IMG/VR virus record: IMGVR_UViG_2778261256_000006 | Span: 1 to 55,611 of that record | DNA: 55,611 nt | DNA from: a virus | Lineage: Duplodnaviria; Heunggongvirae; Uroviricota; Caudoviricetes | Strand: one strand, 5' to 3' | Part shown: piece after piece, positions 7,645 to 55,611 of the stretch | Layout of the letters: each line of letters starts with the position of its first letter | Position numbering within the stretch: position 1 is the first letter of the stretch | Made by a program: the position numbers and the translations under genes | Notes under the pieces: generated by a model | What the model saw: only the letters and a program-made list of their open reading frames with translations | The model's database searches: none | What the model was told of the DNA's origin: nothing

Positions 7645-8700
7645 CTATTTGCGAGCCTTTGCCTTGCGCAGCTCTTCGAGAATCGCCAGTTCTTCCTTGC
7701 TCAACATGACCATTTCCCCGTCTTTTTCTTCAGGGGCAACATCGATAATGTCCTCCGGATCATCACCTGGCAAGATATCTTCTGGCTCTTCAGGCGTGGC
7801 CATAGATGGCGGCAGTGCCGAACGTAACTTCGGCCGTCTATAGTGGATGACGAAGTAGACCGAGCTGCCGCGTTTCACTTCAGTGTAATCGAGATAGCCG
7901 ATCTCTCGCAGCTGCTCCATCGCCTTCCTGACTGTCGCATTCTGGGTAATGGTGCGGCTGGTTAAGTTAAGTCTGGCGCGTAAGCGAGCCAATGAGATTG
8001 GCGCCGGGTCTGGTGGCAAACTTTCAATGAAGGTGTAGAGCGCCTGCGCGGATTCTTTTCTGGAGAGTTCGTTGATGGCCCGAAGTTGCAAAAGCACCTT
8101 TTTGTCGAACTGGTAAAGTTCGAAAATCTTAGGATCGGCCTTCAGTTCGACCGTGTCATTCTTGGTACTGTACTTTGCCGTCTGCACAAGGTGCGTAACG
8201 TAATACTCTTCAGAGCCTTTGCTGCGGAATGAGATGGTGTTTGTGGCGATACGACTTAGAGAGCTGTCCAGGCGCTTACGTAACTTCGCGGACGATCTGG
8301 CTGTTGGTATGCCACAAAGTCTGACGAACTCGACGAACGGCAACGTGACGGTGTCACCAACAACCTTGTGCTTGGCGAACGCGTGGATGATGCCCACCCA
8401 TGTTTTGAAATCGTTATCCATATCAAGACGAAGACCAGCAATCCTTATATCCTCGTACCCTTCGGCTTTGGCCAGAGACAGCTGTTTGAGTTCAGCGGAG
8501 GCGTCCATAGAGACCATTTGCCCCTTTCTACCCCTGGATGTCGATTTCAGCGTCGGAACGAAGAGACCAAGACGCATCAGAGCAACAGGCTGAACTGTGT
8601 TGTTGGTGTTAGGAACTAACGTAACAACTTCGCCGGTCTTTTTGTCTGTTTCGGAAAATGCTTCGCTTATCGCAATGTTTTTATTGTCGTTTACGCTCAT
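7645..8700 (-). CDS. repA: Replication initiator RepA (RepFIB / P1 RepA family, iteron-binding)
   Basis: 351 aa; motifs I recall from RepFIB RepA ([61 protein letters not shown]); flanked by iterons. Confidence 0.88.
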
Positions 8701-13694: not shown

Positions 13695-14430
13695 CTTGAG
13701 CCGCACGCAGTTTTTGCAGATGTTTGCCGTGATGCAGTCTATAAAGCTGATAAACAACCATACAGCAAAAGTAACTCCGCCTGCACTTTTGTGGAAAAAC
13801 GTAAACATCAGCGACAACCAGTTCTCGGTATTAACCAATCTATTGTCATCGACTCCTTTGATGCCGAGCTTGGCTAATCTGCCGTCAGGAAGCACTGCGC
13901 CGATCCTTATTAATCCATTTACGGAAGGTGGATATCTCCCACATTCTGGGCCGGGGTTCGTTGTGATTCCTGAAACCGGAACGCTGAACATCCAAGAAAA
14001 TGCACTCTTCAATGCAATGGAGACGCACATCAGCACCGCATTCACTAATCTGATTCGACACGCTAACGCACGCGCGGATCACGTTGCAATGCCGGGTGCT
14101 GCCTTCGCCAGCTTCTCTGTTGACTATGACCGGCACGCGCCAATTTCAAAGCGGGCGAAACTCTGCTTTTACGAGAAGGGATGTGAAGTAGCGATTATTG
14201 AAGTTCTCCTCCCCCACGTATTCAACGCGAATGAAAAGGCTGCGTGCCAACTTATTGACATCATGCGGCATTTCATCGGCCAGAGCATGATTGATGCAGA
14301 TATTGCTGCAGGCGTTCTGATCAACGATGGCATTCACGTAGTTAACGACATTCCGAAGCCGCCAACTCGCGAGCCGGAGAAGACACTTGAACAGAAACTA
14401 ATGGAATGCCCAACCTGGGCTACGTGGTAA
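13684..14430 (+). CDS. hypothetical protein
   Basis: 248-aa ORF overlapping the sbcC-like stop; no recognised motif. Confidence 0.5.
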   Translation: MSFNLSRTQFLQMFAVMQSIKLINNHTAKVTPPALLWKNVNISDNQFSVLTNLLSSTPLMPSLANLPSGSTAPILINPFTEGGYLPHSGPGFVVIPETGTLNIQENALFNAMETHISTAFTNLIRHANARADHVAMPGAAFASFSVDYDRHAPISKRAKLCFYEKGCEVAIIEVLLPHVFNANEKAACQLIDIMRHFIGQSMIDADIAAGVLINDGIHVVNDIPKPPTREPEKTLEQKLMECPTWATW

Positions 14431-14441
14431 GGAGACCAAAA

Positions 14442-15181
14442 GTGAGAGGAAGAGCGACAAAATTAAGAAAAGATGCGAAACCTATCAATCCCGACGATTT
14501 CGACGGAAATTTCATTAGAGAGTTGGAGCCAATATTTGATTCAAGGGGGCGTAAGCGCCGAATTGTTGAGCTTGAATGCTTTATCTGCGGTCATCGATTC
14601 TCTGCAACCTTGAGAATGCGAAGCGAGTCAGACAGAAGACCTGCTCAAACAAATGTGCCGGAATATATCGCCAGAACGCAGAATATAAAGTCATGGAAAA
14701 CCCTCTGTACTGGACTTGGGCAAGTATGAAGGCGCGTTGTAACAATCCAAATCGGGCAAGATACGAAAAGTATGGAGGACGGGGAATATCTTACGCCACC
14801 GGGTTCGAGGATTTTGATAATTTTTACAGGTATGTTTCCGTACTTGAGGGCTATCCGTTTTCCGATACGGAGAGAGTTGTAGAGGGGGTTACGCTTGATC
14901 GCATCGACTCCAGCAAGGGATATGAACCAGGGAATCTGAGGTGGGCTGACAAGCACGTCCAGAGTGCAAATAAACAAGGGAAAGTGGATGGTAGTACGTC
15001 GAAGTTTACTGGCGTTCATTACTGCAAAACGAACAAGGTTTGGGTTGCTAGAGTTGTGTGGAAAGGAGAGTGTGTCTTCTTGTATCAATGTCACGATGAA
15101 TTGGAGGCTTACTTAGCGCGTAAGCGATTTATCGAAGAGCACAATCTACCGCATTTTGTTGAAATGGAGGTCACAGAGTGA
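14442..15181 (+). CDS. HNH homing-endonuclease-like protein with AP2 domain; apparent frameshift near 14600
   Basis: RBS AAGGAG then GTG at 14442; N-terminal CFICGHRF in frame 0; TCSNKCAG, YGGRGI, HNH-like (GYEPGNLRWAD) and AP2-like (KFTGVHYCKTNKVWVARV) segments in frame 2. Confidence 0.6.
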
Positions 15182-15812: not shown

Positions 15813-16273
15813 ATTGGGCTACACATAATAAGCATCGTAAAACGTAACGCCCACCGAGCCGCTGCCAGCTGCATGAAGCGCTGACAAAGTTCGCTGTCGA
15901 TTGCACTGGCCCGAGCCAGTTCGAATACCTCTAAGCCGAGTTTAACCACTTTGTGGCCTGGCGCTGCTGGGTCAAAATTGGCGTATCAAAAGAAGTCTAA
16001 AGGAAAGAAAACATGAAATTTACGAAACTGACCGATCATCTGAAACTTGCCGCAGACAAACTCGTGGGGTTTAAACCAGAGCCTTACGAGTTGAATCCCG
16101 GTTTTCCGCACGCCTTGCGGAACTGGAAGAACGAGTGTTTGAACTGGAGAAGCGCATTAATGCGCAAGCTACCGCCATAGCTAATCTGGGCACGACAGTA
16201 GGCATGGAGAAGGTGCGTAATAGCGTTGCTTCTCGTGTTTTGCGTGAAACCCGGATACACAAGGACAGTTCTC

Positions 16274-16785: not shown

Positions 16786-16806
16786 GGCCGCTGACGGCCC
16801 TTTTGT
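16786..16806 (+). terminator. hairpin plus T-tract in the leader of the Rha-like gene (possible attenuator)
   Basis: GGGCCG-CTGA-CGGCCC followed by TTTTG, between the operator-like motif (16741) and the gene start. Confidence 0.45.
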
Positions 16807-16822
16807 ACTGAATGGAAAACGT

Positions 16823-17638: not shown

Positions 17639-17747
17639 CCGTCAGTATGGACGTCCACCTTTATGTAGCGTTTGGCCACCTTTTCAGTCACGTCACAATA
17701 ACACAATTGAGAAAACAACTTGTTTAAAAACATAAGAAAAAAAACAC

Positions 17748-18320: not shown

Positions 18321-18324
18321 TATA

Positions 18325-18345
18325 TAGGGGGCAAAGCCCCCTACT
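18325..18345. terminator. bidirectional hairpin between convergent genes
   Basis: AGGGGGC-AAA-GCCCCCT between the 17748-18320 (+) and 18346-18765 (-) genes. Confidence 0.5.
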
Positions 18346-18765
18346 CTACTTTGCGGCGTCTAACAATAAGCCGCAATTTTCGCTCATGTATGCCGCAGTT
18401 GCCGGATTGCCTCTGTCATTATTCGAATTGTTCATTTCAGGGTGAGCGTCCCAGGCCACTGATTCCTGAGATGATAGATAGACGGCAAAGTCGACGATTT
18501 CATCATCTCCGGTTTTAACGTTGCCAAGCAATTCATTTGCCTTTCTCCAGTGCTTCAGCGCGAGAATTCTGAACTGTTTTGCATTTTCAGCAGGCACTGC
18601 ACTGGATTTGTCTGTGTAGATATTCGATATGTCGGCATAAAGAGCGCATTTAACATAGCTGGTTGCCCTGCCGGTCTCTTTAAAACCTTGCTCTGTGTTG
18701 TTGGCGTAGACATTCACAGCAAAAGCGCTGGCAATTCCCAGCAATATAATTTTCTTCATCATCAT
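18346..18765 (-). CDS. secreted hypothetical protein (signal peptide)
   Basis: MMMKKIILLGIASAFAVNVYA signal peptide; 139 aa. Confidence 0.55.
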   Translation of the reverse strand: MMMKKIILLGIASAFAVNVYANNTEQGFKETGRATSYVKCALYADISNIYTDKSSAVPAENAKQFRILALKHWRKANELLGNVKTGDDEIVDFAVYLSSQESVAWDAHPEMNNSNNDRGNPATAAYMSENCGLLLDAAK

Positions 18766-18936
18766 TACTCAATAAGGAGGCGACAAATATCTTACGTGTA
18801 GTTGTCAGTTGAGTATTAAGTAAACTCAATAAACTTATAAGTATCTCCCTGTGCAGCCTGTGAATCCTTATTTATTACCTACTCAATTTTGAAATAATAA
18901 CACCAACAAAAAAACAATTTGTTTAATGGTGCAATC

Positions 18937-35485: not shown

Positions 35486-36184
35486 ATGGATTGTATCAAA
35501 AATATGGATGTGAAAATTACGATTCTACAGGTGGAAGTCGCGAACCTGCGTCCGAACCCCTGGAATACCAACTCCGTTGGGGCGCAAAACTTCGAAAAAC
35601 TGAAAGGTTCCATCGAAAAGTTGGGCTTTTTTAAGCCAATTCTGGCGCGAGAGCTGGACGGCGGCATTTTTGAGATTCTCGGTGGCGAACATCGCTGGCG
35701 TGCCGCGATGGAGCAGGGCATTTCAACGGTTCCCGTAATGTCGGTGGGAAAAATTAACGACCTGGTGGCCAAACAGATGTCTCTCGTCGATAACGAGCGC
35801 TACGGCGAAGACGATCAGATCGCTTTGCAACGCTTAATCGAAGAAATTCAGTCTGAAATTGACTACCGGTTGTCTGATATCGCCCCGTATGACGACGAAA
35901 TGGCGGCAACGCTCGCCAAAGCATCCGTTATCGATCTTGAAGCGCTGGAAGCGCTCTCCCGCGGCGATGACGAGCCGGTCGGTGAGGACAAACGCGAGAA
36001 AATCGAGCGAGTCGGTGCTGAACACCAGACGATGCGCTTCAAGGTGACGTTCGATGCGTCAGATCGCGTCGCCGATACCATCAAAACCATCATCAAAGAG
36101 CAGGGAATCAATACCGGTAACGAAATGGAGAACGCCGGGGAAGCCTTGGTGTGGCTGGTCGACTACTACAAGGAGCGTATGTAA
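35486..36184 (+). CDS. ParB/Srx-type N-terminal domain protein (ParB-like nuclease domain) 1
   Basis: ParB box-II-like motif (ILGGEHRWRAA); 232 aa. Confidence 0.65.
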   Translation: MDCIKNMDVKITILQVEVANLRPNPWNTNSVGAQNFEKLKGSIEKLGFFKPILARELDGGIFEILGGEHRWRAAMEQGISTVPVMSVGKINDLVAKQMSLVDNERYGEDDQIALQRLIEEIQSEIDYRLSDIAPYDDEMAATLAKASVIDLEALEALSRGDDEPVGEDKREKIERVGAEHQTMRFKVTFDASDRVADTIKTIIKEQGINTGNEMENAGEALVWLVDYYKERM

Positions 36185-36852
36185 TGACCAAGAACTTTGA
36201 AATCGTATATCGAAACCCGGCAGAACTTATCCCGTATGAGATGAACGCCAAAAAACATGACGAACAGCAGATCCACGACCTGGCGGCTGCCATCAAAAAG
36301 CGCGGTTTTGACCAGCCGATCACGGTCGACAAGCACGACGTCATCATTACTGGTCACGGTCGTCGCGAGGCGGCACTTCTGGCTGGTCTGGAGCGTGTGC
36401 CTGTCATCGTTCGCGACGATCTGAGCGAAGAAGAAGTGAAGGCGAAGCGTCTTGAAGACAACCGCCTGGCCAGTATTGACTACGACGCCATCAAATTGCA
36501 GCAGGAACTGGAGTCCCTGGTGCTGGGTGACGTTGAGGTCTTTGGTTTTGAAGAGCGAGAGCTGAACGTGCTTGTTGGCAGCATGACCGAAGAGATGGAA
36601 ACAGGCTCTCTGGTGCTCGATCTGGGTGAAGAGACGGAACGCCAGAAAGAAGAGCACACCGAGATCAGTCGCGAAGTGGCCTCTGAAGAAGTCCGAGTCA
36701 TCGACGTATTGGGCTTTAAAACGCTCCCTGCTGGCTCTGCCATTGTGGTTGGGGATTTGCTTGCCCACATGGAAGAAATTACGGGAGAAAGCGGGGTAGA
36801 CGCTTTCGTGGCGTATGCGGAGAAAGTTTCCTCTGGGGAGCTGGCTGCATGA
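36185..36852 (+). CDS. ParB/Srx-type N-terminal domain protein 2
   Basis: ParB box-II-like motif (IITGHGRREAA); acidic C-terminal half. Confidence 0.6.
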
Positions 36853-37487
36853 GCAAATACACCATCAACGTATCGTTTCAGACCCGCGTGAACAAAACCA
36901 CGCGCACGCTGGAGATTGCCGAATCGTTCGGTCTTGGCCTGGACGAAAAAGAGTGGACGCTTTACGACAATCTGGAGCTGGAAGTGAAGCAGGGCGATGT
37001 GGTGTACATCACCGGCCAATCCGGTTCCGGTAAATCCGTTGTGCTGCGCGAGCTGCAACGCCAGATGAAGGATGAAGGGCTTTCTGTAGCCTCCATCGAT
37101 GACTTTGCCTTCGACAATGAGGTTAACGTCATTGACCAGCTGGGCAAAACCACCAGCGAAGCGCTGGGGCTGCTGTCTATGGCCGGATTGAATGACGCCT
37201 ATCTCTTTGTGCGTAAGCCATCCGAGATGTCTGACGGCCAGAAATACCGTCTCAAGATCGCCAAGCTGATCGAGTCCGGCGCGAAAGTCTGGGCTGCCGA
37301 CGAATTTGGCGCTGTTCTCGACCGTGTAACCGCCCAGGTTGTGGCGTCGAACCTCCAGCGTGCCGCCCGTAAGGTTGGTGCGACGGTAATGGTGGCGACG
37401 ACCCACGAAGACCTGAAGAACGCGCTGCGCCCGGATATGCAGATCACCAAGCACTACAAAGAACGCGTGAAGGTGGAATATGCCTGA
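36849..37487 (+). CDS. minimal ABC-type ATPase
   Basis: Walker A (GQSGSGKS), signature-like (SDGQKYR), Walker B (VWAADEFG), H-loop-like (TTHE); 212 aa. Confidence 0.65.
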   Translation: MSKYTINVSFQTRVNKTTRTLEIAESFGLGLDEKEWTLYDNLELEVKQGDVVYITGQSGSGKSVVLRELQRQMKDEGLSVASIDDFAFDNEVNVIDQLGKTTSEALGLLSMAGLNDAYLFVRKPSEMSDGQKYRLKIAKLIESGAKVWAADEFGAVLDRVTAQVVASNLQRAARKVGATVMVATTHEDLKNALRPDMQITKHYKERVKVEYA

Positions 37488-37734
37488 TTTGAAGATCGTA
37501 GAGCTGAAGCCATCGAAAGAGGCTGACAACAACAACGTTGAAGTCATCCGCCTGCTGGAAGAAGCACTCCAGTACGCCAGAGAAGGCAAAAGCCAGAGCC
37601 TGGCACTGCTGATGATCAACAACGACGGCAGTGTGCTGGATTGCTGGCATAACGGTGGGCGTCCATACGTCATGGTTGGGGCGATGGAATCGCTTCGCCT
37701 GGACTTCATCAATGCCAATATCGAGCGTAGGTGA
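37480..37734 (+). CDS. small hypothetical protein
   Basis: 84-aa ORF overlapping both neighbours. Confidence 0.4.
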   Translation: MPDLKIVELKPSKEADNNNVEVIRLLEEALQYAREGKSQSLALLMINNDGSVLDCWHNGGRPYVMVGAMESLRLDFINANIERR

Positions 37735-38630
37735 TCGACATGACAGGCATCATCATCAAACGCTACCGCCCGGAAGAGTTCCCGCGTCATCTGGACTTTC
37801 TGGAGCGTATGACCGTTACCAAAGGCACGGTTGAAGACTGGCACGCGCTGAAGTCGCTGCACTACAAGACGGATGGTAAGCCGTTTGCGCCAACGTATTA
37901 TCGCTGCGAACTGGACGACCGGCTGGTGGGCGTCGTGGTTATGGCTTACCCGAAACTGCTGCTGGCGCCTCGCCATCGCATGTTTCCTAAGCTGAAGCCA
38001 ACCACCAATACCACCGTGGCCAACCAGTATTGGGGGCGGTACGTGAACAACAACTTTGCGGTGATCAGCCGTTCCGTTGTGGACACTCAGTACCGCGGTG
38101 TCGGCGTCTCCTATCGAATGATTAACCTGGTTAGCAGGATGCACGACCGGCCAATCATCGAGATCCAGTCGTCGATGAGCAAATACAACCCGTTCGCCAT
38201 GAAAGCAGGGTTCCAGTTCATCCGTCCGGAGCGTCCGAAGAGCTATGAGAGTGCGTTGCGCGTCTTCCAGCGTCATTTCCGTTCCGACCCTGGCGACAAC
38301 GAAGCGATCGTCAAAGAGCTGTTTGCCATGAGTGAGTCTCGCCGTCGTCGTGCGCTGCGTGATCTGGTCGCTGACTACCACAAGAACAGTTCCCTGGCCA
38401 AAGCCGGGCGTAATCGTGGCACGACGATTCAGGACATTGCCGACAGCCTGGTGGACGAGGCCAGCATCGTGAAGCTGCTCAAGGACATTCACAACCTGAG
38501 CTTCACGTCTCCGCTGTATGGCGTGTACCGAAACCCGGACTTTGGTCGTCAGCTGCCGGACACGCTGCCACTGCTGGCATTCGACAAACAGCCTTTGAAT
38601 AAACCTCTTGAAATTGCATTACCGGCATAA
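37731..38630 (+). CDS. GNAT-like acyltransferase-fold protein (tentative)
   Basis: Motif-A-like segment (VVDTQYRGVGVSYRMINLV) typical of GNAT acetyl-CoA binding; 299 aa. Confidence 0.45.
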   Translation: MIDMTGIIIKRYRPEEFPRHLDFLERMTVTKGTVEDWHALKSLHYKTDGKPFAPTYYRCELDDRLVGVVVMAYPKLLLAPRHRMFPKLKPTTNTTVANQYWGRYVNNNFAVISRSVVDTQYRGVGVSYRMINLVSRMHDRPIIEIQSSMSKYNPFAMKAGFQFIRPERPKSYESALRVFQRHFRSDPGDNEAIVKELFAMSESRRRRALRDLVADYHKNSSLAKAGRNRGTTIQDIADSLVDEASIVKLLKDIHNLSFTSPLYGVYRNPDFGRQLPDTLPLLAFDKQPLNKPLEIALPA

Positions 38631-38639
38631 GGATTTGCC

Positions 38640-38906
38640 ATGACGTTGACCGACAAACAAAAAGACATCATCAAAACCATCAATTTAGGCCATGAGCGTG
38701 GGCATCTGCTCGATCTGGACGAGCTGCTTGAAGTGCTGCCGTACAAAACGACCAAACAGAGTATGCAGTTCTCTATCCGCGCACTGGTGAAAAAGGGGCT
38801 GGTGGAGAAAGGAATGTGCCGCCAGCGCGGTGATTCCGGCTACCACCGTCGCACGCTGGGACTGACCACTTTAGGTCGTGCCAGAGCCAAATTACTGGTG
38901 ATGTAA
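38640..38906 (+). CDS. small probable winged-helix DNA-binding protein
   Basis: 88 aa; basic C-terminus (RRTLGLTTLGRARAKL). Confidence 0.4.
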   Translation: MTLTDKQKDIIKTINLGHERGHLLDLDELLEVLPYKTTKQSMQFSIRALVKKGLVEKGMCRQRGDSGYHRRTLGLTTLGRARAKLLVM

Positions 38907-38928
38907 GTCGGTCTGGGAGCCAGTTTGA

Positions 38929-38989
38929 GAGCCTGCTTCCGTATATATAAATACTAAGTGACTTATTAAATATATACGGAAGCAGGCTC
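38929..38989. repeat. 61-bp palindromic element (19-bp arms), copy A of a two-copy repeat
   Basis: GAGCCTGCTTCCGTATATA..TATATACGGAAGCAGGCTC; about 85% identical to the element at 51046-51100. Confidence 0.6.
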
Positions 38990-39020
38990 TGAATACTCCC
39001 CAGCCCGGTTTTAAACACCC

Positions 39021-39064
39021 AGAAAACAAATTGGTTAGGCACTGAATTAAACAAGTTGTTTAGG
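39021..39064. promoter_or_regulatory. tandem pair of operator-like palindromes upstream of terS
   Basis: AGAAAACAAATTGGTTAGG and TAAACAAGTTGTTTAGG. Confidence 0.5.
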
Positions 39065-39101
39065 AGCGCAAGGATGCGCTCTGAGTGTTTTAGAGGGATC
39101 T

Positions 39102-39743
39102 ATGACTATAGAAAAAGACGAGAGCAAAACTCGCCTGACACCAGCTGAGTGGGCAGAAGCCGAAGCGAAGTGGACTTCCGGCGAATACACACTCTCCAAG
39201 CTGGAGGAAGAGTACGGCATTCGTCGTGAAACGCTCTCCAGACATTTCAAAAAGCGTGGATTAGAGAAAGGCGCGGACTCCGTTGGGAAGATGGTGCGCG
39301 AGTCGCTCAAATCCGACGCAGAGCTGCGTGCGAAGGCGCGTGCAGAGAAAATCGAAGAGCGCCGGACTCGTTACGACGATTGGGCGTTCGCACTCGGTCG
39401 TATGGTGATGCATGAGGTGGCCATAGCCAAGAAGGACGGCAGGCCACTGGCAGCCATCGAAGATGACCTGAAGAGTCTCCAGCGTGCCAGCGGCACACTC
39501 GCTAAGTGCTTCGAAATATCGTCGAAAGCGCTCGGTATGGATCGCGTGGAGAACGAGGACGACGAAATCCCGAACCTGGTATTTGGCGAACTTACGCCTT
39601 CCCAGGTGGCGCAGCTGCGTAAGGAAGATGATGAGCCGGATCTGATTGATGACGATCTGCTTGAGTCACTCGAAGAGGAAGCACTGAGCGAAGCTGAGGG
39701 CGATTCTGAAGCGTCTGGTGATGAAAGTGATGGGAGCGTCTGA
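39102..39743 (+). CDS. Terminase small subunit (TerS)-like
   Basis: 213 aa, N-terminal helix-turn-helix-like region, highly acidic C-terminus; immediately precedes TerL. Confidence 0.6.
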   Translation: MTIEKDESKTRLTPAEWAEAEAKWTSGEYTLSKLEEEYGIRRETLSRHFKKRGLEKGADSVGKMVRESLKSDAELRAKARAEKIEERRTRYDDWAFALGRMVMHEVAIAKKDGRPLAAIEDDLKSLQRASGTLAKCFEISSKALGMDRVENEDDEIPNLVFGELTPSQVAQLRKEDDEPDLIDDDLLESLEEEALSEAEGDSEASGDESDGSV

Positions 39744-39745
39744 CT

Positions 39746-40999
39746 ATGACCATCCCGTCGTCTCTGAGTCTCGTACAGCTGCATTCTGGGCAGATGCAAG
39801 TCTTCCAGTCGCCACATCGTTTCAAAGTGGTGTGTGCGGGTCGACGCTGGGGTAAATCCCGGTTGTCGATCTCCACCATCATCCGCGCGGCAGCCAAAGA
39901 GAAGAAGCAACGTGTCTGGTATGTCGCACCGACTTACCAGATGGCTCGCCAGATCTTGTGGGATGACCTGCAGGAAGTTCTGCCGCGCAAATGGGTTCGT
40001 AAGAAAAACGACACCACGATGACCATCGTGCTGAAGAACGGCTCTGAAATCGCGCTGAAAGGTGCGGATAAGCCCGATACGCTTCGTGGTGTGGCACTGC
40101 ACTTTGTGGTGCTCGATGAATTTCAGGATATGAAGCCTGACACCTGGTACAAGGTACTGCGTCCGACACTGTCCTCCACCCGTGGCGGTGCGCTGATCAT
40201 CGGTACGCCAAAAGGCTTCTCCGAGTTCCACAAGCTGTGGACTATCGGTCAGAACAAAGATTTGCAACGCAAGGGGCAGTGGAAGAGCTGGCAGTTCGTT
40301 ACGGCCGATTCTCCGTTCGTACCGAGCGCGGAAATCGAAGCAGCGAAGAACGATATGGACCCTAAATCGTTCGCACAGGAATACCTGGCCAGCTTCGAAA
40401 ACATGTCCGGACGCGTTTACTACCCGTTCGACCGCAATGTGCATGTGAAGCCACTCCAGTTCAATCCGAAACTGCCGATCTGGGTTGGTCAGGACTTCAA
40501 CATCGACCCTATGTCATCGGTCATCCTGCAACCGCAGCCAAATGGTGAACTGTGGGCTGTGGACGAATTGGTGTTGTTCTCTTCTAACACGGCTGAAGTG
40601 TGTGACGAGCTGGAGCGTCGATACTGGCGCTGGAAATCTCAGGTCACTATCTTTCCTGACCCGGCAGGTGCGTATCGCCAGCACGCACGCGGCGAATCTG
40701 ACGTCGACATCTTCAAAGAGAAAGGTTTCCTTCGAGTCGATTATCCGAAGAAGCACCCGCCGATCGCAGACCGTGTTAACGCAGTGAACCGCATGTTGAT
40801 GAGTGCCTCGGGCGAAACCCGGTTGTACATCGATCCGAAGTGCAAACACCTCATCGACTCGCTGGAGAAGGTGATCTACAAGCCAGGCTCACGCGATATG
40901 GATAAGACTGGCGGCATCGAACACAGTGCGGATGCGTTGGGTTATCCAGCGTGCATCGTCGCTGGGGACTGCGTGGGCGCCTTGGGCATCTGGAAGTAG
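39746..40999 (+). CDS. Terminase large subunit (TerL)
   Basis: Walker A (VCAGRRWGKS), Walker B (HFVVLDEFQD), C-terminal RNaseH-like nuclease region. Confidence 0.85.
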   Translation: MTIPSSLSLVQLHSGQMQVFQSPHRFKVVCAGRRWGKSRLSISTIIRAAAKEKKQRVWYVAPTYQMARQILWDDLQEVLPRKWVRKKNDTTMTIVLKNGSEIALKGADKPDTLRGVALHFVVLDEFQDMKPDTWYKVLRPTLSSTRGGALIIGTPKGFSEFHKLWTIGQNKDLQRKGQWKSWQFVTADSPFVPSAEIEAAKNDMDPKSFAQEYLASFENMSGRVYYPFDRNVHVKPLQFNPKLPIWVGQDFNIDPMSSVILQPQPNGELWAVDELVLFSSNTAEVCDELERRYWRWKSQVTIFPDPAGAYRQHARGESDVDIFKEKGFLRVDYPKKHPPIADRVNAVNRMLMSASGETRLYIDPKCKHLIDSLEKVIYKPGSRDMDKTGGIEHSADALGYPACIVAGDCVGALGIWK

Positions 41000-41009
41000 G
41001 GGCAAACAT

Positions 41010-41483
41010 ATGGGTCTGAAGTACGACGCGCATCAGTTTAAGCGTGCTGGCGACAGGCTCAATAACAGCCAGAAAGCCTTTAAGCGTTATCTCATTCGTG
41101 ACATGGAGAAGCTGGCGCGTCTGGTTGAGCGTCTGGCGCGGGCAATGGCTCCGCTGGAGACTGGCTCACTCGAAAGCGCGATTTTCGCGAGAGTTGTCAA
41201 AGAGGGCTATACGGGGCTGCGTATTGAGTTATCGGTGTCTGGGGCTAAACCGCGCGAAGGGAACCCTGGTGTTGAGGTTGGTGATTATGCGGAGTACATG
41301 GAGTTGGGCAAGTATCGTCTCGGCTATCTCTCCCGCATGAAGAGCGTCACCAACCCGCCAGTTGCTGGTGTGAAGCCACGCGTTGGGCCTTTGTTCCTTG
41401 AAAGAGCGGCACAGGTCAGTGAGAAACAGTTCGCTCAGACGATAGCTGAAGCAGCAAGGAAAGCAGGTTTTACGAGAAGTTGA
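41010..41483 (+). CDS. virion morphogenesis protein (HK97 gp10-like; tentative)
   Basis: 158 aa; position and composition resemble head-tail joining proteins; motif-level support is weak. Confidence 0.4.
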   Translation: MGLKYDAHQFKRAGDRLNNSQKAFKRYLIRDMEKLARLVERLARAMAPLETGSLESAIFARVVKEGYTGLRIELSVSGAKPREGNPGVEVGDYAEYMELGKYRLGYLSRMKSVTNPPVAGVKPRVGPLFLERAAQVSEKQFAQTIAEAARKAGFTRS

Positions 41484-41484
41484 T

Positions 41485-41868
41485 GTGTTTATTGAAGCAT
41501 TTGCGAGCCTGATGCAGAAGGCGAAGATCGGCACACTCGGCACTGACATTTTCTGTCACTACATGCCAGCCAATGTGAAGTCCGGCGTCCTGTTGGTTAC
41601 TCCCAATACGGGGATCGCCATTGACCATGAGTTAAAAGGCTTTTATCACGACTCTTTTACCGTCATCGTGCGTAATGCGACGATCACAAAGGCGGTGGCG
41701 AAAGCCAATAAGATCATGGACATGTTTCCCGTCGAGGAAACCGTGTCAGATGGCGTTTACTTCCGGTTGGTACGACCAATGTCGATGCCGATAACTTATC
41801 CAAAAAACGAAGGCTCGTTGATTGAAGCGGGCATCCCGATTGAATTTGCGGGCTATTTGTTGAATTAA
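41485..41868 (+). CDS. tail terminator-like protein (tentative)
   Basis: 127-aa ORF immediately upstream of the major tail gene. Confidence 0.4.
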   Translation: MFIEAFASLMQKAKIGTLGTDIFCHYMPANVKSGVLLVTPNTGIAIDHELKGFYHDSFTVIVRNATITKAVAKANKIMDMFPVEETVSDGVYFRLVRPMSMPITYPKNEGSLIEAGIPIEFAGYLLN

Positions 41869-41942
41869 CAAAATAAGTAAGTATATACTTACTATTGGCG
41901 CCATGAAGGTGCTGATTTAACGGAAAAAGGAGTTTTCCAACA

Positions 41943-42689
41943 ATGTCCAATACCCATGTAAAAAACATCAAACTTGGCGCCTGCAAAGTGTCGTTTGGTG
42001 GTGTTGATCTGGGTTACACCAAAGGCGGTGTTCAGGTTGAGGTTGCGACCGAAACTCTGAAAGTTACCGTAGACCAGCTAGGGCAAACCACCATCTCCGA
42101 GCTGGTACAGGGCCGTAACATCACTATCACTGCGCCGCTGGCCGAGTCTGTGTTGCAGAATATGGTCGATCTGATGCCGGGTTCTACCCTGAGTGAAGAA
42201 GATAACTCTGTGACCATCACTTCCGCACAGGGCGTCAATCTGATCGACGTAGCTAAAGAGCTGGTTCTGACCCCGCAGGATACCACCGACTACGTTCTGA
42301 CCATCCCGAAAGCTGCGACCGCAGGTAACTTCACTATGACCTACCAGTCTGATGATGTTCGCGTGTTCTCGGTTCAGTTCACCGCTTACCCGGATGACGA
42401 CGGTATTCTGGGGAAAATGAGCGGCCCAAAGCCGGTTAAATCCGTCTCTATCTCTCCGGATTCTCCGGAAGTTAAAGCCGGTGAGAGCGTGCAGCTGGCA
42501 GCCCAGATCACACCTGCAGATGCCGGCGACAAAACCGGTGTGTGGGAGTCCGACAATCAGGAGAAGGCTACCGTTGATCAGACTGGTCTGGTTCGCGGAG
42601 TAGCTGAAGGTTCGGCAAATATCTCCTTCACCAGCAATAGCGGCGGCAAGAAAGCGACCAAAGCTGTAACGGTTAATTCTGCCGAATAA
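41943..42689 (+). CDS. Major tail protein with C-terminal Ig-like (Big_2-type) domain
   Basis: 248 aa; C-terminal about 80 aa Ig-like (VKSVSISPDSPEVKAGESVQLAAQITPADA..TVN); followed by a terminator and the G/GT chaperone genes. Confidence 0.7.
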   Translation: MSNTHVKNIKLGACKVSFGGVDLGYTKGGVQVEVATETLKVTVDQLGQTTISELVQGRNITITAPLAESVLQNMVDLMPGSTLSEEDNSVTITSAQGVNLIDVAKELVLTPQDTTDYVLTIPKAATAGNFTMTYQSDDVRVFSVQFTAYPDDDGILGKMSGPKPVKSVSISPDSPEVKAGESVQLAAQITPADAGDKTGVWESDNQEKATVDQTGLVRGVAEGSANISFTSNSGGKKATKAVTVNSAE

Positions 42690-42705
42690 TCGTGACGTGA
42701 CTAAG

Positions 42706-42734
42706 CAGAGGCTCAGGAAGAGCCTCTCTTTTAA
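42706..42734 (+). terminator. terminator/attenuator after the major tail gene
   Basis: GAGAGGCTC-AGGAAG-AGCCTCTC followed by TTTTAAAA. Confidence 0.6.
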
Positions 42735-42748
42735 AAGGATTTTAACCA

Positions 42749-43066
42749 ATGACCAAATTACTCGATCTCGACTCCATTCTACCTCCGAAGAAAAGTATCA
42801 AGTTCGGCGGTCAGGAATACCCCATCGTTGAAATGACAGTTGGTCTGTTCGTCTCCATCAAGCAGATGGAAGGCAAAGATCTTCAGAACATGTCTCCTGT
42901 AGAGCAGGTTACTGCTTACGCCGACCTGGTTCGCAAGGTCATCCCATCCGTGCCGGACGCTGTACTGGAAAAACTGACTGTTCCGCAGCTTCAGCAAATC
43001 TTCACCTTCGCTATGGAAGTGATTGATGAAGAGAACGAAAAAGCGGCTGGTGAAGGGGCAAAGTAA
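42749..43066 (+). CDS. Tail assembly chaperone (gpG-like)
   Basis: 105 aa, acidic C-terminus; directly upstream of an overlapping -1 frame ORF and the tape measure gene. Confidence 0.65.
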   Translation: MTKLLDLDSILPPKKSIKFGGQEYPIVEMTVGLFVSIKQMEGKDLQNMSPVEQVTAYADLVRKVIPSVPDAVLEKLTVPQLQQIFTFAMEVIDEENEKAAGEGAK

Positions 43067-43146
43067 TTTCCCGCGATGAATCCGGGGTAAAGACCGTATC
43101 GATAGATCTCGGATTCTATTTCAGTCGTGTAGTTGCTCACTACGCC

Positions 43147-43416
43147 GTGTCGCCATTAGAGCTGCTGGGCGTCCCTCTAACGATGTTCTGGATGCTCAGT
43201 CGCAACATCGACCGTCTACGTGCGGAAGAGGATGTCCGCAACCTGCAAGTCGCTCGCGCTGCCCAGGCAGATGGCGAGGGCGTGAAGGCGTTCATGGAGG
43301 GTTTGCAACTCAGGATTGGAAGACCAGTCGTAACCGATAAAGTCTACGATCCGCGCAAGGATAAGGCAGACCCTGACGCCAAAGAGCAACTGATGCAAAT
43401 TTTTGGCAGAGGATGA
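43147..43416 (+). CDS. Tail assembly chaperone extension (gpT-like), probably expressed as a G-T fusion by -1 frameshift
   Basis: -1 frame is open from 43054 and overlaps the last codons of the gpG-like gene; lacks its own RBS. Confidence 0.5.
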
Positions 43417-46400
43417 CAAGGGAATGTCACAAAACGTAGAGTTTGTCCTGTCGCTGGAAGACAAGCAGTTTACAGCGTCAATCGACCGGGCGGGTAAGCT
43501 ACTTACCAGATTCGGGGAGCAGGCCACAAAACCAGCTCAGAAAATTAACAATCTGGAACGCTCGTTGGGTTCGGTCTCCCGCATCATCGGCGTTCTGGAG
43601 TCCAAGCTCGATGCCACGGCAGACAAACTACAGGATGTAGCTGCCGGCTTCGAACTTGTGTCTGATGTTTCGCGCAAGACGCGAGGCAACATTACCAGCC
43701 TCAATTCAGGTCTCAAAACCCTGATTGAGCGCGTCGACACAACCACCTCTTCCGTTAATAAGCTCACCACATCGTTGCGCAAGGTTCAGTCTGAACTCAA
43801 TGAGTTTTCCGATTGGGCAACGTTCGCTGGTAAGAGCGCCAGCCGCTTCGGTACGGAGGTAAAAGAAGCCTCTACATCTGTGAGTGGTATGAATACGCGC
43901 CTTAACACCACGACGAAGCGTCTCAGTAATTGGGGCGTCACAACGAACCAGGCTGCCGAGGGGCTGAAGAAAGTCCGCGATCAGATGGATGCGGTGATTG
44001 GCCGCCAGCAGCTGATCAGCAAGCCGGTGCGTGTGCGCACCAGCGGCTACGGTGAGGGCGGTGGTAATGGCGGTGGCGGTCGACACAGCGGTTCCTATGG
44101 CCACGGCGGGCGCGGTGCTGAAAATGGCGTGTTCTCTGGTCTGCGCGGCAATATTTTCCTGCTGGGCGAGATTGGTGATGCGGCAAGAACGGTAACTGAC
44201 ATCCTGTTCGGCTGGCAGAAGCCAATCGTCGAAGCTGCCTCCAAAATGGAGCGTATGCGCGTCATGTTGCGCGGGCTGAACAAGGACAAGGCCAACCCTG
44301 GCAAAGCAGCCGCAGAGGATATGCAGTACATCGTGGATATGGCGCAAAACGCCCCGTTTGCGATGCAGGCGCTGACCGATTCCTTCGTTAAATTCCGCTC
44401 GGCAGGTCTCGATCCTACTGACGGTTCGCTGAAAGCATTGGTGGACTCTGTTGCACGCTTCGGCGGCGATAGTGAACTGCTAAAACGCGCAGCAGTGGCC
44501 GTCCAGCAGATGTCCGGTAAGGGCGTCGTTTCGATGGAAGAACTGCGTCAGCAATTAGGTGAAGCCGTTCCTAACGCGATGAAAGCGATGGCAGACGCTG
44601 CCGGCATTACTATGGGGGAACTGACCAAAGCAGTCTCCAGCGGTACTGTGGAAGCGAAACAGGCGTTATCGCTGATGTTCGTTGGTCTGCGTGCAGAGAA
44701 CGAAAACGCCGCCAAAGACATGATGCAAACCTACACCGGTGCGCTGGCGCAACTACAAACCTCCTTTACGTTGTTCGCCGATCGTGTCGGTCAGACGGGC
44801 TATCTGGATTCTCTCTCTAAGGGAATGAAAGAACTAGCCTCCATCATGAATAGCGCAGAAGGGATTTCGTTTGCTAATTCTTTAGGTTCGGGGTTAACGA
44901 CGGCAATCGATGGGTTGCGTCAGCTTGCTCAATGGTTAGCAAAGAACCAAGAGCTGGTAATTAATCTTGGTAAGGTCGTGGCCGCGATGGTTGCGTTCAA
45001 ACTGATGCGAGCAGGGATCATGGGGGTAGTTGGCGCTGGGAGCCAGATGGTTAGCACCTTTGCCACGATGGCGACCGCCATACAGACTCCATTTAACCTC
45101 GGCGCTACAGCAGTAACTCGATTCAATCGTGCGGCACGTATGGGGCTGGCTCCGATCCCCTCTCTTATTTTCGCCATCCGTGGGGCGATTACGGGGCTTA
45201 AAGGCGCTTTTGCTGGATTAACGGCGTTCATTGCAGCAAATCCAATTGGCGCTGCGTTTACCGTGGCAACCGTGGCCGGGTTGATCACGTATATGACCAT
45301 GCTTCGCAGCGAAACGTCAAAAGTCGTTGACGAGATTAGGAAAATACCAGAGGCGATGACGGCGGCCAAACGTGCACAAATGGCGGAGTATAAAGCGCGT
45401 CTTGAGCAACAAATCACGCAAAAGGAACAAGAGTTAAAATCTGGCGAAAAGGTGGTTTATGGGCCGGGTATGGCCGGAACTACAGTAAAGATTAATCAGG
45501 ATGAACGTAAACGTATAGAAAATGAGCTAAATGACCTTCGTGAGAAACGCGATAAAACTACTGGGGCAATTGAACGCGGAGACACTGCTGTAGCCAAACG
45601 TCTTGCAAAAGATGCGGCAGAATCACAGATAGAGAAAATACGGGAAGAGAATAGAGACTTTGCGGCAACATTCGCTAAAGCTCGTCAAGAGGCTCTGGAG
45701 AAGATCCAAAAAATCAATGATGACGATTCACTTTCTGATGACGAAAAGAACAAACTATTGGCACCGTTACGTGAAACGGTAAACAAAAGCTATCTGGAGC
45801 CTGCGCAAAAACTGGTTGATTCACTTTCTTCTCGTAAGAATGCGACCGAGAAGCAAATCGCGACTCTTAATGATCAGCTTGAAAAAGCCAAAAAAGATGG
45901 CAATACCGAGCAGATCCAGAAACTGCAAGGCAGTATTCGTGGTTATCAGGAGCATTTGGAAGCCGTTGCTCAGGAGCTGACTCAGGCAGAGTTCGAGAGA
46001 GATAATGCGGCCAAAACTGGTAAGGGCGTAATGTCAAACCAGGGGACTGTTCTTGGGTTAGGTACAACTGATAAAGCTGCTCAGAAGGCGCTGGCGCAAT
46101 ATATGCGAAACCAGATGGATTCTGCGACTTATCAGCGTACTTTGCCTGACGGCACTCCGATGATGGACTTCGAAGGTAAGCCGATTATTGGGCCTAAACA
46201 ACTCAAGACGCAGCTTAATTTGCAGAAAGCATCCAGTGCCAGCTCTCTGGAGAAAATGAGCGATGCGGAACGCGCCGCAGCCATTGCAGCGCTGACCAAA
46301 GCGCGCGAACAGGATGCCGCAGCAGCGGAAAAAGCCGGGCGACGTACAGCCAATGCTTCTCAGCGTGCGGCCAAGAAAGAACAGGCAGCGCAACAGAAAC

Positions 46401-46912
46401 TGGCGGCCGGATATCCAACAGCGTATGGAAATATCATTCACCTGAAAGGGATGACAGCCGTTGGCGAAGGTGAGTTACTCATCGGCTGGAGTGGTACAAG
46501 CGGTGCTCATGCTCCGGCATTTATTCGTTCACGACGGGATACGACCGACGCAAACTGGTCGCCGTGGGCGCAGCTTTACACCTCGGCTCATCCTCCTGCA
46601 GAGTTTTATCCAGTCGGTGCACCAATCCCGTGGCCATCAGATACCGTTCCGTCTGGCTATGCCCTGATGCAGGGGCAGACTTTTGACAAATCTGCATACC
46701 CGAAACTTGCAGTTGCTTATCCGTCAGGCGTGATCCCTGATATGCGTGGCTGGACGATTAAGGGCAAGCCCGCCAGTGGTCGGGCCGTATTATCTCAGGA
46801 ACAGGACGGCATTAAATCGCACACCCACAGCGCCAGCGCATCCAGTACGGATTTGGGGACGAAAACCACATCGTCGTTTGATTACGGCACTAAATCTGGA
46901 CAAACTTCTTAA
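43403..46912 (+). CDS. Tail tape measure protein, C-terminally fused in frame to a tail-fibre collar-like fragment
   Basis: 1169 aa; coiled-coil-rich, Gly-rich stretch ([18 protein letters not shown]); final about 150 aa carry a tail-collar-like motif ([49 protein letters not shown]). Confidence 0.75.
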
Positions 46913-47046
46913 CCGGCTCGACACCATCTCCAGTGGGTTCTTTGGCGGCATTGTTTCGAAAATAACGTCGTTCATTATTACCGTACTGCTTTTAGGATTG
47001 GCCGCGTATGGCGTAAAAAATGGATTGCAATAACAGGAGATCAAGG

Positions 47047-47739
47047 ATGAAAACTCCGAGAGGCATTCGTAATAACAACCCCGGTAATCTTGATAAAGGA
47101 GCGCCGTGGCAGGGCTTAGTCAACAACTCTTCAGAACCGCGCTTCTGCACGTTTAAAGACCCCGTGTGGGGGATTCGGGCATTGGCAGTGACACTCATTA
47201 CTTACCACGACAAGCGCCGCGCAAAAGATGGCTCCAGCATTGATACGATCCGCGAAGTCATCGAACGCTGGGCGCCTCCACATGAGAACAACACTTTGGC
47301 TTATGTGAACGAGGTATCCAAAGCCGTTGGAGTAGCACCAGATATGATTATCGATCTGCATGACTACGAGACCTTAAGGCCGCTGGTAGAGGCGATCATT
47401 AGACATGAAAATGGCCGAGGTCCGCTGAAAACTCCCAATAGCTGGTATACACCAGAACTTATCGAAGAAGGTCTGCGGCGTGCCGGCATTGTCAAACCGG
47501 TAAAGGCTGTAAAAGCCGTTCCTGTAACAAAAGAAACCGCAGGTGCTACAGTCACTGCAGGTATTGGCCTTGCACAAATTGCTGACGTTATGCCTCAAGT
47601 TTCTGCCGCAATGGATAAAGCGCAAGGCAATATCTCCAGTGGAGATACGGTACGCATCATCTTTGGCGTAGCTACCATTCTTGTGGCAGCATTCATTGCC
47701 TGGTCACAGGTGCGCAAACACCAGAACGGGATGGTCTGA
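47047..47739 (+). CDS. endolysin-like / cell-wall-hydrolase-like protein with C-terminal TM segment (tentative)
   Basis: AGGAGA RBS; directly upstream of Rz/Rz1; C-terminal hydrophobic helix (IIFGVATILVAAFIAW); enzymatic family not recognised. Confidence 0.4.
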   Translation: MKTPRGIRNNNPGNLDKGAPWQGLVNNSSEPRFCTFKDPVWGIRALAVTLITYHDKRRAKDGSSIDTIREVIERWAPPHENNTLAYVNEVSKAVGVAPDMIIDLHDYETLRPLVEAIIRHENGRGPLKTPNSWYTPELIEEGLRRAGIVKPVKAVKAVPVTKETAGATVTAGIGLAQIADVMPQVSAAMDKAQGNISSGDTVRIIFGVATILVAAFIAWSQVRKHQNGMV

Positions 47740-47740
47740 T

Positions 47741-47992
47741 ATGACCGGCAGCCTATTTTCAAAACTGAAGTTTGCTTTGATGACTCTGGCTGCCGTTCTT
47801 TTCGTGCTTGTCGGCGCTTATACGATGGGAGGTCGTGCGGCCCGGCAAGCAATAGAAGAGAAGGCAAGGCAGGAGGACAGGAAAAGGCTTCAAGGCACAG
47901 TGGACGTCAAAAATGAGATACTTAATGAAGTGCGGCGGAAAGATGCTTCTGCTGTTCATCGCGAGCTGCATGACAAGTGGCTGCGTGATTAA
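47741..47992 (+). CDS. i-spanin (Rz-like)
   Basis: N-terminal TM (LKFALMTLAAVLFVLVGAY) then charged coiled-coil; contains the start of an overlapping +1 frame lipoprotein gene. Confidence 0.7.
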   Translation: MTGSLFSKLKFALMTLAAVLFVLVGAYTMGGRAARQAIEEKARQEDRKRLQGTVDVKNEILNEVRRKDASAVHRELHDKWLRD

Positions 47993-48155
47993 GACACAGA
48001 CTTCTGGCGTGCTGTTTTGTGATGCAGCAAACCCTATTTATGTCAGTAACGACGACTTTATGACCGAAGAGACGGAACGCGAGATCCTCTTCCATAACAC
48101 GATGGGAGAGCGATTGTGCAATTGGCAACCGTCATTGTCGCCAAATAACATTTGA
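47913..48155 (+). CDS. o-spanin (Rz1-like lipoprotein), overlapping Rz in a different frame
   Basis: Lipobox (LLLFIASC / MTSGC); starts inside the Rz ORF and extends past it. Confidence 0.65.
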   Translation: MRYLMKCGGKMLLLFIASCMTSGCVIKTQTSGVLFCDAANPIYVSNDDFMTEETEREILFHNTMGERLCNWQPSLSPNNI

Positions 48156-49090: not shown

Positions 49091-49756
49091 ATGACCAAGA
49101 TCATTGTGGTTGGCGGCACAAAAGGCGGCCCAGGCAAATCTACCGTTGCCCAGCAAATTGCGGTATGTCTCAAAGTTAAAAAGAAAAAGAAGGTTCACGT
49201 CACCGATATCGATATCCAGCGCACCACGACCAGCTGGTGTGAAGACCGTCGCCAGAACGAAGATCTTGAACTGATCCCGTTCGCTTATGTGCAGGACGAC
49301 ATCGTCAAACATCTTAAATCGCTTCAGGGGCGAACTGATTATGTAGTGGTAGATGCTGGTGGCTTTGACTCCGAAATTCAGCGTCTGGCGATGCTTATGG
49401 CTGATGTAATCATCATCCCGCTGCGCCCTAAACGTCGTGATTTGAAATCTCTGCGTGATATCGACCCGATTATCGACAACGTTCGCAATGTGAACGAGAA
49501 AGTTAAGATCCGCGCGGTAATAAACCAGTGTCCGTCATTGCCTTCCCAGGTATCACGTATTCTGGCCGCGAAGGAAATTGTCGAAACTTTCGGCATCGAG
49601 GCTGCGCCGGTCAATCTGTACAACCGTAACGTTTATGACGATGCAGAAGAGGCTGGACGTTCTATCTTTGAAATGTCAGGCGCTGAACGCGATAAGAAAG
49701 CAGAAGCCGAATTTGGAGAGTTAGTAGATTACATCTTGAGTCTGGAGGAAGAATAA
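49091..49756 (+). CDS. parA: ParA-family partition ATPase
   Basis: Deviant Walker A (GGTKGGPGKST); 221 aa; followed by an overlapping small DNA-binding protein gene. Confidence 0.85.
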   Translation: MTKIIVVGGTKGGPGKSTVAQQIAVCLKVKKKKKVHVTDIDIQRTTTSWCEDRRQNEDLELIPFAYVQDDIVKHLKSLQGRTDYVVVDAGGFDSEIQRLAMLMADVIIIPLRPKRRDLKSLRDIDPIIDNVRNVNEKVKIRAVINQCPSLPSQVSRILAAKEIVETFGIEAAPVNLYNRNVYDDAEEAGRSIFEMSGAERDKKAEAEFGELVDYILSLEEE

Positions 49757-55534: not shown

Positions 55535-55611
55535 CTGATGAATCCCCTAATGATTTTGGTAAAAATCATTAAGTTAAGGTGGATACACATCTTGTCATAT
55601 GATCAAATGGT
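55535..55611 (+). mobile_element. IS10 (Tn10-type) outside end, extends beyond window
   Basis: Terminal 77 bp CTGATGAATCCCCTAATGATTTTGGTAAAAATCATTAAGTTAAGGTGGATACACATCTTGTCATATGATCAAATGGT matches the IS10 terminus as I recall it. Confidence 0.8.

Follow-up and report, generated by a model that had tools for sequence, protein, structure and literature searches.

Evidence for deletion of the head module from an SSU5-type phage-plasmid that is very probably defective

The conversion of phage-plasmids into plasmids through gene loss has been documented (PMC10879196, PMC12977533). The P1-type cases share with the element described here the process in which essential phage functions are lost and propagation continues as a plasmid only. 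They belong, however, to the P1 myovirus family, whereas the present element is of the SSU5 siphovirus type, and they form established lineages, often with resistance genes and oriT or mobilisation genes, while the present element looks like a recent event in a single isolate. The founding, experimentally proven phage of the SSU5 group is Salmonella phage SSU5 (NC_018843.1/JQ965645.1), in which the gene order is canonical (terL, portal, scaffold, capsid and onwards to gp10, gp11 and the major tail protein), with gp3–gp9 lying between terL and gp10 and encoding the portal, scaffold, capsid and Ig proteins and three connector-region proteins. An apparently intact SSU5-type phage-plasmid is represented by CP099103.1, an E. 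coli IncFIB plasmid of 112,849 bp. An SSU5-derived E. coli plasmid, pXJW9B263-1 (NZ_CP067400.1; 138.8 kb, IncFIB, MOBP mobilizable), has lost its virion genes and kept the plasmid backbone: nothing of the head and tail module remains, terL is complete, lysis-region genes lie about 1.6 kb downstream of terL, and IS elements and mobilisation genes have been gained.

The stretch of DNA analyzed here (the window, 55,611 nucleotides) is the entire draft-assembly contig NNVY01000030.1. Our literature search returned no publication on the assembly (NNVY01/GCA_002485945). Collinearity places the window within the SSU5 type (SSU5_pHCM2/pSLy3 groups). Its terL is 98.6% identical to that of pHCM2 (NC_003385.1), and nucleotide identity to SSU5 is about 95% from the packaging to the tape-measure region, with the retained genes in the same order but with none of gp3–gp9. 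Window positions 5824–54641 are collinear with CP099103.1, at 97–99.7% identity over most blocks and about 90% in two short stretches, and carry the same repA, partition, packaging, neck, tail and replication genes. CP099103.1 has, and the window lacks, a 5.67 kb head module, the full 1,523-aa tape measure, the tail tip, the full fibre, tfa, the full SSU5 gp26-like (putative holin) gene and an 8.2 kb nucleotide-metabolism block, while positions 1–5823 of the window carry a type I restriction-modification region that is not found in CP099103.1. The plasmid pXJW9B263-1 is 99.8% identical over the TerS/TerL flank, but its loss is larger and has other end points; unlike it, the present element keeps the neck genes, the major tail gene and a portion of the tape measure, and within the one contig that makes up the window no mobilisation genes were seen. 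When these comparisons are considered together, the element is very probably a defective SSU5/pHCM2-type phage-plasmid (IncFIB RepA) that lost its head module in one of several recent deletions.

The region in question runs on the plus strand. The gene at the TerS position (39102..39743) encodes an intact DNA-binding protein homologous to SSU5 gp1 (phrog_867, E 1e-105), located as is SSU5_001. It is followed by a 3'-truncated, chimeric terL (39746..40999; 417 aa; Terminase_6N, phrog_2/phrog_10250) and then by an intact tail completion/Neck1 gene, HK97 gp10-like and homologous to SSU5 gp10 (41010..41483, ATG start at 41010; 157 aa; phrog_927, E 3e-74, with a weak PF04883 match). An intact tail terminator gene, the SSU5 gp11 homologue (41485..41868; 127 aa; PF12691, E 5e-21), precedes the intact major tail gene (41943..42689; 248 aa; phrog_1280, E 9e-165), whose product ends in a C-terminal Big_2 (Ig) domain (PF02368). 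By tblastn, these last three proteins are 99.4%, 100% and 100% identical, respectively, to the reference proteins. A preliminary description had TerL ending at 40999, with two small ORFs and then the major tail gene following, and the ORF layout agrees; of the two sizes it gave, 127 aa is right, while the ORF listed as 158 aa encodes 157 aa.

Between terL and the tail-completion gene, 5,670 bp are missing relative to CP099103.1, and SSU5 also has the module at this place. The junction (J1) lies at 40943..40947 in a TATCC microhomology that is imperfect (GGT[T]ATCC), the crossover having been placed in GGT(T)ATCC by a three-way alignment. With blastn, window positions 36000–40959 correspond to 3001–7958 of the aligned sequence L001 and positions 40943–46415 to 13612–19090, and in the collinear match to CP099103.1 (99% identity) the coordinates jump from 71678 to 66024 at window positions 40943–40959. 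What was lost comprises the last 16 codons of terL, the genes for the portal (phrog_145), scaffold (phrog_206), major capsid protein (major head protein, phrog_212) and Ig-decoration protein (Ig structural protein, phrog_215), two connector-region genes and the SSU5 gp9 homologue except for its last 24 codons, the latter three accounting for phrog_916, phrog_912 and phrog_911. On one side of the junction, terL is native for codons 1–402 of 418, to about 40951 (aa 1–402 of the reference TerL are matched by tblastn at 99.5% identity), after which come 16 foreign codons, ACIVAGDCVGALGIWK, contributed by the gp9-homologue remnant in another reading frame. On the other side, this remnant (40942..41013, plus strand; phrog_911, 114 aa when complete) consists of the last 24 codons only, without a start, and corresponds to hyp115 aa 90–113 at 91.7% identity in tblastn. 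As truncated remnants lie on both sides of J1, they point to loss rather than to a non-canonical gene order, which is unlikely to be native since it would not leave two truncated genes behind.

Three further deletions are found in the same contig, all of them collinear and with short junction homologies, one of which is a perfect 8-bp repeat. At J0 (16103..16104, with a 2-bp overlap), about 8.2 kb of the nucleotide-metabolism block is missing, including the genes for thymidylate synthase, DHFR, a 3'-5' exonuclease, an N6-adenine methyltransferase and others. At J2 (46408..46415, in the 8-bp microhomology CGGATATC), about 11 kb is missing and the coordinates of CP099103.1 jump from 60546 to 49535; the 3' third of the tape-measure gene, the tail-tip genes M, L, K and I, the gene for a 1,524-aa central tail protein and the 5' part of the fibre gene are lost. 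J2 also created an in-frame chimeric tape-measure::fibre ORF (43403..46912, plus strand), in which the N-terminal part covers about two thirds of the tape measure (profile positions 1–1009 of 1523; phrog_1292, residues 8–1016) and the C-terminal part is an internal piece of a side-tail fibre (PF07484 Collar and tail-fibre PHROGs, residues 1000–1168). At J3 (46887..46896, with an imperfect microhomology of at most 10 bp), about 2.2 kb is missing, namely the fibre 3' end, the tail fibre assembly gene (tfa) and the first ~60 codons of the putative holin gene. A remnant of the latter (46892..47033, plus strand; SSU5 gp26 homologue, phrog_5093) retains the C-terminal ~47 residues and has lost the native start; the holin assignment is annotation-based, as the 107-aa protein of the relative is 93% identical to SSU5_026, annotated as 'putative holin'. 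Together, the four deletions amount to about 27 kb relative to close relatives. The truncation of TerL and the broken tail, fibre and holin genes downstream had not been recorded in the preliminary description.

No PLSDB record spans any of the four junctions (for J1, queries of 401 bp and 4.46 kb were used). Complete E. coli genomes likewise lack J1, an exact scan for its 26-mer found it in neither GTDB representatives, IMG/VR nor JGI metagenomes, and when the chimeric TerL was looked up as an exact protein, only contig NNVY01000030.1 was returned. The J1 flanks are present in 789 related PLSDB plasmids and are adjacent in 0/789, and the head module is likewise matched by 789 PLSDB plasmids, 671 of which carry at least 80% of it. 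Junctions found once, in a draft contig of the short-read type whose end lies 77 bp inside IS10, could be assembly artefacts, such that the true plasmid is intact and terL was misjoined to the gp9 homologue. We consider this very improbable. The sequence shared at the junctions is 2–10 bp, much shorter than the k-mer of any assembler, which leaves no repeat that could be collapsed; order and orientation are preserved at four separate junctions; and an intact plasmid would give continuous unique sequence, as it does in hundreds of complete relatives. The retained genes are 99–100% identical to those of intact relatives with almost no other indels, which points to recent events.

The head genes might instead have moved elsewhere on the replicon or onto a co-resident element, leaving a functional phage with a non-canonical order. 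The search for them covered the window, that is, this one contig. When the portal, scaffold, capsid, decoration and connector proteins of CP099103.1 were searched against the whole window with tblastn, the only matches were an Ig-domain cross-match to the major tail protein and the 24-aa remnant at the junction, and the 5.65 kb head module, used as a blastn query, had zero matches in the window. Positions 5824–54641 are collinear with CP099103.1, whose annotation shows no further head genes. We also asked whether window-specific DNA might hide a non-homologous capsid or portal, and rejected this: Pfam and PHROGs found no head family among the window-specific ORFs and the unannotated ORFs of at least 200 aa, which belong only to restriction-modification, IS, HD-domain, Sel1, SbcC-like and unknown families. 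The earlier claim that the head module is absent after TerL and from the rest of the window is thus borne out by tblastn, blastn, collinearity and Pfam/PHROGs. That description had left the head genes either elsewhere, in a non-canonical order, or lost; the truncated remnants, the 789 PLSDB relatives and the SSU5 order favor loss and speak against the non-canonical order. It should be considered that the window is part of a replicon and that the contig ends at an IS element, which would leave room for a relocated module. Relocation is nonetheless very unlikely. The scar cuts both terL and the gp9 homologue, so that a moved block would end in fragments and TerL would still be truncated; the deletions in the tape measure, tail tip, fibre and holin would break the virion pathway regardless; and such an arrangement is found in none of the 789 relatives. 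A second, co-resident SSU5-type plasmid would be expected to be incompatible with this one, with which it would share its IncFIB replicon and its partition genes. The analysis thus supports the reading in which the head genes were lost by deletion and are not natively placed elsewhere.

Loss of the head genes need not mean loss of transmission, if the element has become a helper-dependent, satellite-like hitchhiker that brings its own TerS, TerL and packaging signal and has a superinfecting, intact SSU5-like phage supply the capsids and tails in which it is packaged and spread. A TerS-like gene, nearly all of terL and the neck and major tail genes are indeed retained, and a genome smaller than the wild type would be expected to fit the head of a helper. 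If true, the element would be a phage-plasmid just beginning to turn into a satellite, but we regard this as extremely unlikely. Across the collections searched, all four junctions are unique to contig NNVY01000030.1, so there is no lineage for selection to act on, and the deletions left gene fragments and a nonsensical tape-measure::fibre fusion rather than tidy boundaries. Terminase C-termini contact the portal in other phages, and the replaced C-terminal tail of TerL may be the part that does so here. No genes for interference or capsid redirection were seen, nor were satellite-type helper-exploitation genes among the ORFs checked with Pfam and PHROGs. With junctions confined to one contig and boundaries that cut genes, the element does not resemble phage satellites of the PICI, P4 or PLE kind, whose compact architecture is conserved and recurs across many isolates and which carry dedicated helper-exploitation genes. 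That the relatives acquired the head module by insertion, the short form being the ancestral one, can be dismissed as next to impossible, since the 16 C-terminal residues of native TerL are missing and the junction carries 24 codons of the gp9 homologue without a start, while the proven phage SSU5 has the module here and the module is matched by as many plasmids (789) as are the flanks.

In the history that we propose for a defective phage-plasmid, the head module originally lay in its canonical place, between terL and the tail-completion gene, until a single microhomology-mediated deletion of 5,670 bp excised it. Three more deletions took the nucleotide-metabolism genes, the 3' end of the tape measure with the whole tail tip, and the fibre/tfa/holin 5' end. 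Replication slippage or another route of illegitimate recombination may have been at work, and the events appear to be recent. As a result of the four deletions, capsids and tails could presumably no longer be built, so virions would not be formed, and the ability of the element to lyse the cell is probably lost as well.

We read the missing head genes as an ordinary case of a phage decaying into a plain plasmid and not as a novel gene order, and defective phage-plasmids are already known. Relevance beyond annotation is therefore small: the contig should be labelled as a defective SSU5-type phage-plasmid that is effectively a plasmid, and should neither be labelled a phage with unusual genome organisation nor counted as an inducible phage-plasmid in surveys. 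It does offer a base-resolved example from the SSU5 family of the decay from phage-plasmid to plasmid previously described for P1-like elements, and its four short-homology deletions suggest that such decay can proceed via several independent illegitimate-recombination events in one lineage.

The gene content agrees with this assignment, as the element is close to a functional phage-plasmid, has lost lytic essentials and has kept plasmid functions. A complete virion module is not present: the head genes, tail tip and tfa are absent, TerL is truncated, and the tape measure is truncated and fused. In the lysis cassette, an endolysin-like gene (47020..47739) is present and the region matching the Rz-like spanin gene of relatives (47741..47992; the family match was made on the relative's protein) is kept, next to the SSU5 gp26-like putative holin gene without its first ~60 codons. 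Persistence would depend on the replication and partition genes alone, by which the element would be inherited vertically as a plasmid. A replication initiator and partition genes, as expected for plasmid maintenance in an SSU5-type phage-plasmid, are both found: a ParA-like gene lies at 49091..49756 and ParB-like (ParB_N) genes are also present, while repA (7645..8700, minus strand) is collinear with the annotated repA of CP099103.1 (IncFIB) at 99.7% nucleotide identity and is preceded upstream by a 21-bp iteron-like array.

Megablast with positions 36000-48000 of the window matched 948 plasmid records, mostly non-mobilizable, 105-115 kb in size and derived from Escherichia, Klebsiella, Enterobacter, Yersinia and Salmonella. 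The top matches were E. coli plasmids at 98-99% identity, and identity to Salmonella phage SSU5 was ~95%. The E. coli plasmid CP099103.1 (112,849 bp, IncFIB), an apparently intact relative used here as the reference for lost genes, is collinear in reverse orientation with window positions 5824-54641, its repA corresponding to 7645..8700. Judged by this collinearity and the IncFIB repA, the window is part of an SSU5/pHCM2-type phage-plasmid. By exact-protein look-up, it makes up the whole of contig NNVY01000030.1 in the draft assembly GCA_002485945.1, and its last 77 bases (55535-55611) exactly match the terminus of an IS10/ISVsa5 copy in CP099103.1; as the contig breaks at this repeat, the replicon runs on into other contigs. 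Positions 1-5823 encode a fragment of the type I restriction-modification protein HsdS, a DUF4268 protein, a 1,005-aa HsdR and part of an IS3-family transposase; this block is missing from CP099103.1 but also occurs in NZ_CP110979.1 (a 188 kb plasmid). The contig starts within hsdS, so hsdM lies off the contig. Upstream of repA, 21-bp iteron-like tandem repeats are found at 8788-8838 and 9146-9221, the former array having one 21-bp unit fewer than in CP099103.1.

The gene for the large terminase, TerL (39746..40999; 417 aa; Terminase_6N, phrog_2/phrog_10250), is followed by genes for a 157-aa tail-completion/Neck1 protein (ATG at 41010, end at 41483; phrog_927, E 3e-74, with a weak HK97 gp10 Pfam match), a 127-aa tail terminator (41485..41868; PF12691, E 5e-21) and an Ig-domain major tail protein (41943..42689; phrog_1280). 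The ORF map leaves no space for a head module between TerL and the major tail gene and agrees with the preliminary description of two small ORFs at this position, except that the first encodes 157 and not 158 aa. Synteny with SSU5-like elements shows what belongs there, as both CP099103.1 and SSU5 carry the head module between TerL and tail completion, in the order TerS-like, TerL, portal, scaffold, major capsid, Ig protein, three small proteins, tail completion, tail terminator and major tail protein.

When aligned with L001, the reference locus for this region, window positions 36000-40959 correspond to 3001-7958 and positions 40943-46415 to 13612-19090; this jump in L001 coordinates at window 40943-40959 means that 5,670 bp are missing from the window. 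In a three-way alignment, the crossover lies inside GGT(T)ATCC, with a perfect TATCC at 40943-40947, and we calculate the chance of at least 5 bp of junction identity at a random breakpoint pair as roughly (k+1)/4^k, or ~0.6%. The deleted genes, whose families were typed with PHROGs, encode the portal (524 aa, phrog_145), the head scaffolding protein (298 aa, phrog_206, DUF6651), the major head protein (291 aa, phrog_212), an Ig-domain structural protein (142 aa, phrog_215), two proteins of unknown function (144 aa, phrog_916; 277 aa, phrog_912) and the first ~89 codons of the SSU5 gp9 homologue (phrog_911; 114 aa when full). By tblastn, the window TerL comprises reference residues 1-402 of 418 at 99.5% identity, and its C-terminus consists of 16 unrelated residues translated out of frame from the gp9-homologue remnant, of which the last 24 codons remain, without a start codon, at 40942-41013. 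As truncated remnants of both terL and the gp9 homologue lie at the scar, the short arrangement cannot be a natively non-canonical gene order, and the relatives cannot have gained the head module through insertion. Of the two options first put forward for the head genes, a location elsewhere in non-canonical order or loss, the former is thus unsupported and the latter is borne out.

Searches of the whole window with the lost proteins (tblastn) and the 5.65 kb module (blastn) found none of them, apart from the remnant at the junction and a cross-match between the Ig domain and the major tail protein, and the annotation of CP099103.1 lists no further head genes in the DNA collinear with the window. 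In the stretches specific to the window, the products found are type I restriction-modification components, DUF4268, a fragment of an IS3-family transposase, one HD-domain and one Sel1-repeat protein, and small unknowns. The remaining unannotated ORFs of at least 200 aa fall in non-structural or unknown PHROGs. The claim that the head module is absent both from its canonical position and from the rest of the window therefore holds by tblastn, blastn and family typing. A 258-aa gene at 14406-15181, with HNH-endonuclease-like PHROG matches, is split into overlapping ORFs (14406..14729 and 14576..15181) by a 1-bp deletion at 14608 relative to CP099103.1, which reflects a genuine frameshift or else a sequencing error.

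According to the collinear map and junction alignments, the window carries at least four deletions, that of the head module among them. At 16103-16104 (2-bp overlap), 8.2 kb are lost relative to CP099103.1 and other relatives, including thymidylate synthase, dihydrofolate reductase (DHFR), a 3'-5' exonuclease, an N6-adenine methyltransferase and several hypothetical genes. At 46408-46415, a perfect 8-bp repeat, CGGATATC, marks the loss of ~11 kb with the last third of the tape measure, the whole tail tip, a 1,524-aa central tail protein and the 5' part of the fibre. This junction creates an in-frame tape-measure::fibre chimera (43403..46912), in which the first ~1,000 tape-measure residues are joined to a collar-domain segment from within a lambda-type side tail fibre. 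At 46887-46896, ~2.2 kb are lost with the 3' end of the fibre, tfa (the tail fibre assembly gene) and the first ~60 codons of an SSU5 gp26-like putative holin, of which the C-terminal ~47 residues are left (46887-47033). An endolysin-like gene (47020..47739) and a region that corresponds to the spanin gene of the relatives (47741..47992) are still present.

It is very improbable that the head genes were relocated elsewhere, and such a move would leave TerL, the tape measure, the tail tip and the holin as defective as they are. Mis-assembly at the junctions is unlikely, as their homologies of 2-10 bp are far below any assembler k-mer and order and orientation are preserved at all four. In PLSDB, 789 records matched the head-module query, 671 of them with at least 80% of the module, and the flanks were adjacent in none of the 789 records matching a 4.46 kb junction-spanning query. 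No complete E. coli genome spans the head junction, and a degenerate 26-mer over it, which occurs once in the window, is absent from GTDB representative genomes, IMG/VR and JGI metagenomes. The head deletion thus appears private to this isolate; the other three junctions are likewise spanned by no PLSDB record. Outside the junctions, the retained genes share 99-100% identity with their counterparts in intact relatives and have almost no indels, which suggests that the deletions are recent. It is very improbable that the element is a satellite-like hitchhiker, for which the retained packaging genes are the one argument, as the uniqueness of the junctions speaks against an evolved strategy. The missing head module is best read as a recent deletion, specific to this isolate, in an SSU5-type phage-plasmid undergoing decay.

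In every deletion, collinear sequences are joined at a short direct repeat, a pattern expected of replication slippage or of illegitimate recombination independent of RecA. As the element lacks portal, scaffold and capsid as well as a complete tape measure, tail tip and fibre, virion assembly should be impossible, and lysis is probably also impaired, as the putative holin is truncated. With the replication initiator, iteron-like repeats, ParA-like and ParB-like partition genes, and helicase and primase genes still present, the element should persist as a low-copy plasmid, and in the host, selection would plausibly be neutral towards, or favour, the loss of lethal lytic functions.

The head deletion is a new instance of known phage-plasmid decay. 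Defective SSU5-type plasmids already have precedents, and they share the same kind of conversion with P1-like elements, for which Pfeifer and Rocha showed phage-plasmid-to-plasmid conversion through gene loss (PMC10879196). NZ_CP074043.1, singled out in the tyPPing paper as SSU5-like and below completeness thresholds (PMC12977533), and NZ_AP027577.1 retain only fragments. In the SSU5-derived E. coli plasmid NZ_CP067400.1 (138.8 kb, MOBP mobilizable), terL is intact, the whole head and tail module is missing and the lysis-region genes follow ~1.6 kb later (13107-16761 of its locus, L007), which looks like a phage-plasmid-to-mobilizable-plasmid conversion within the SSU5 family. This plasmid has also gained several IS elements along with MOBP mobilisation functions.
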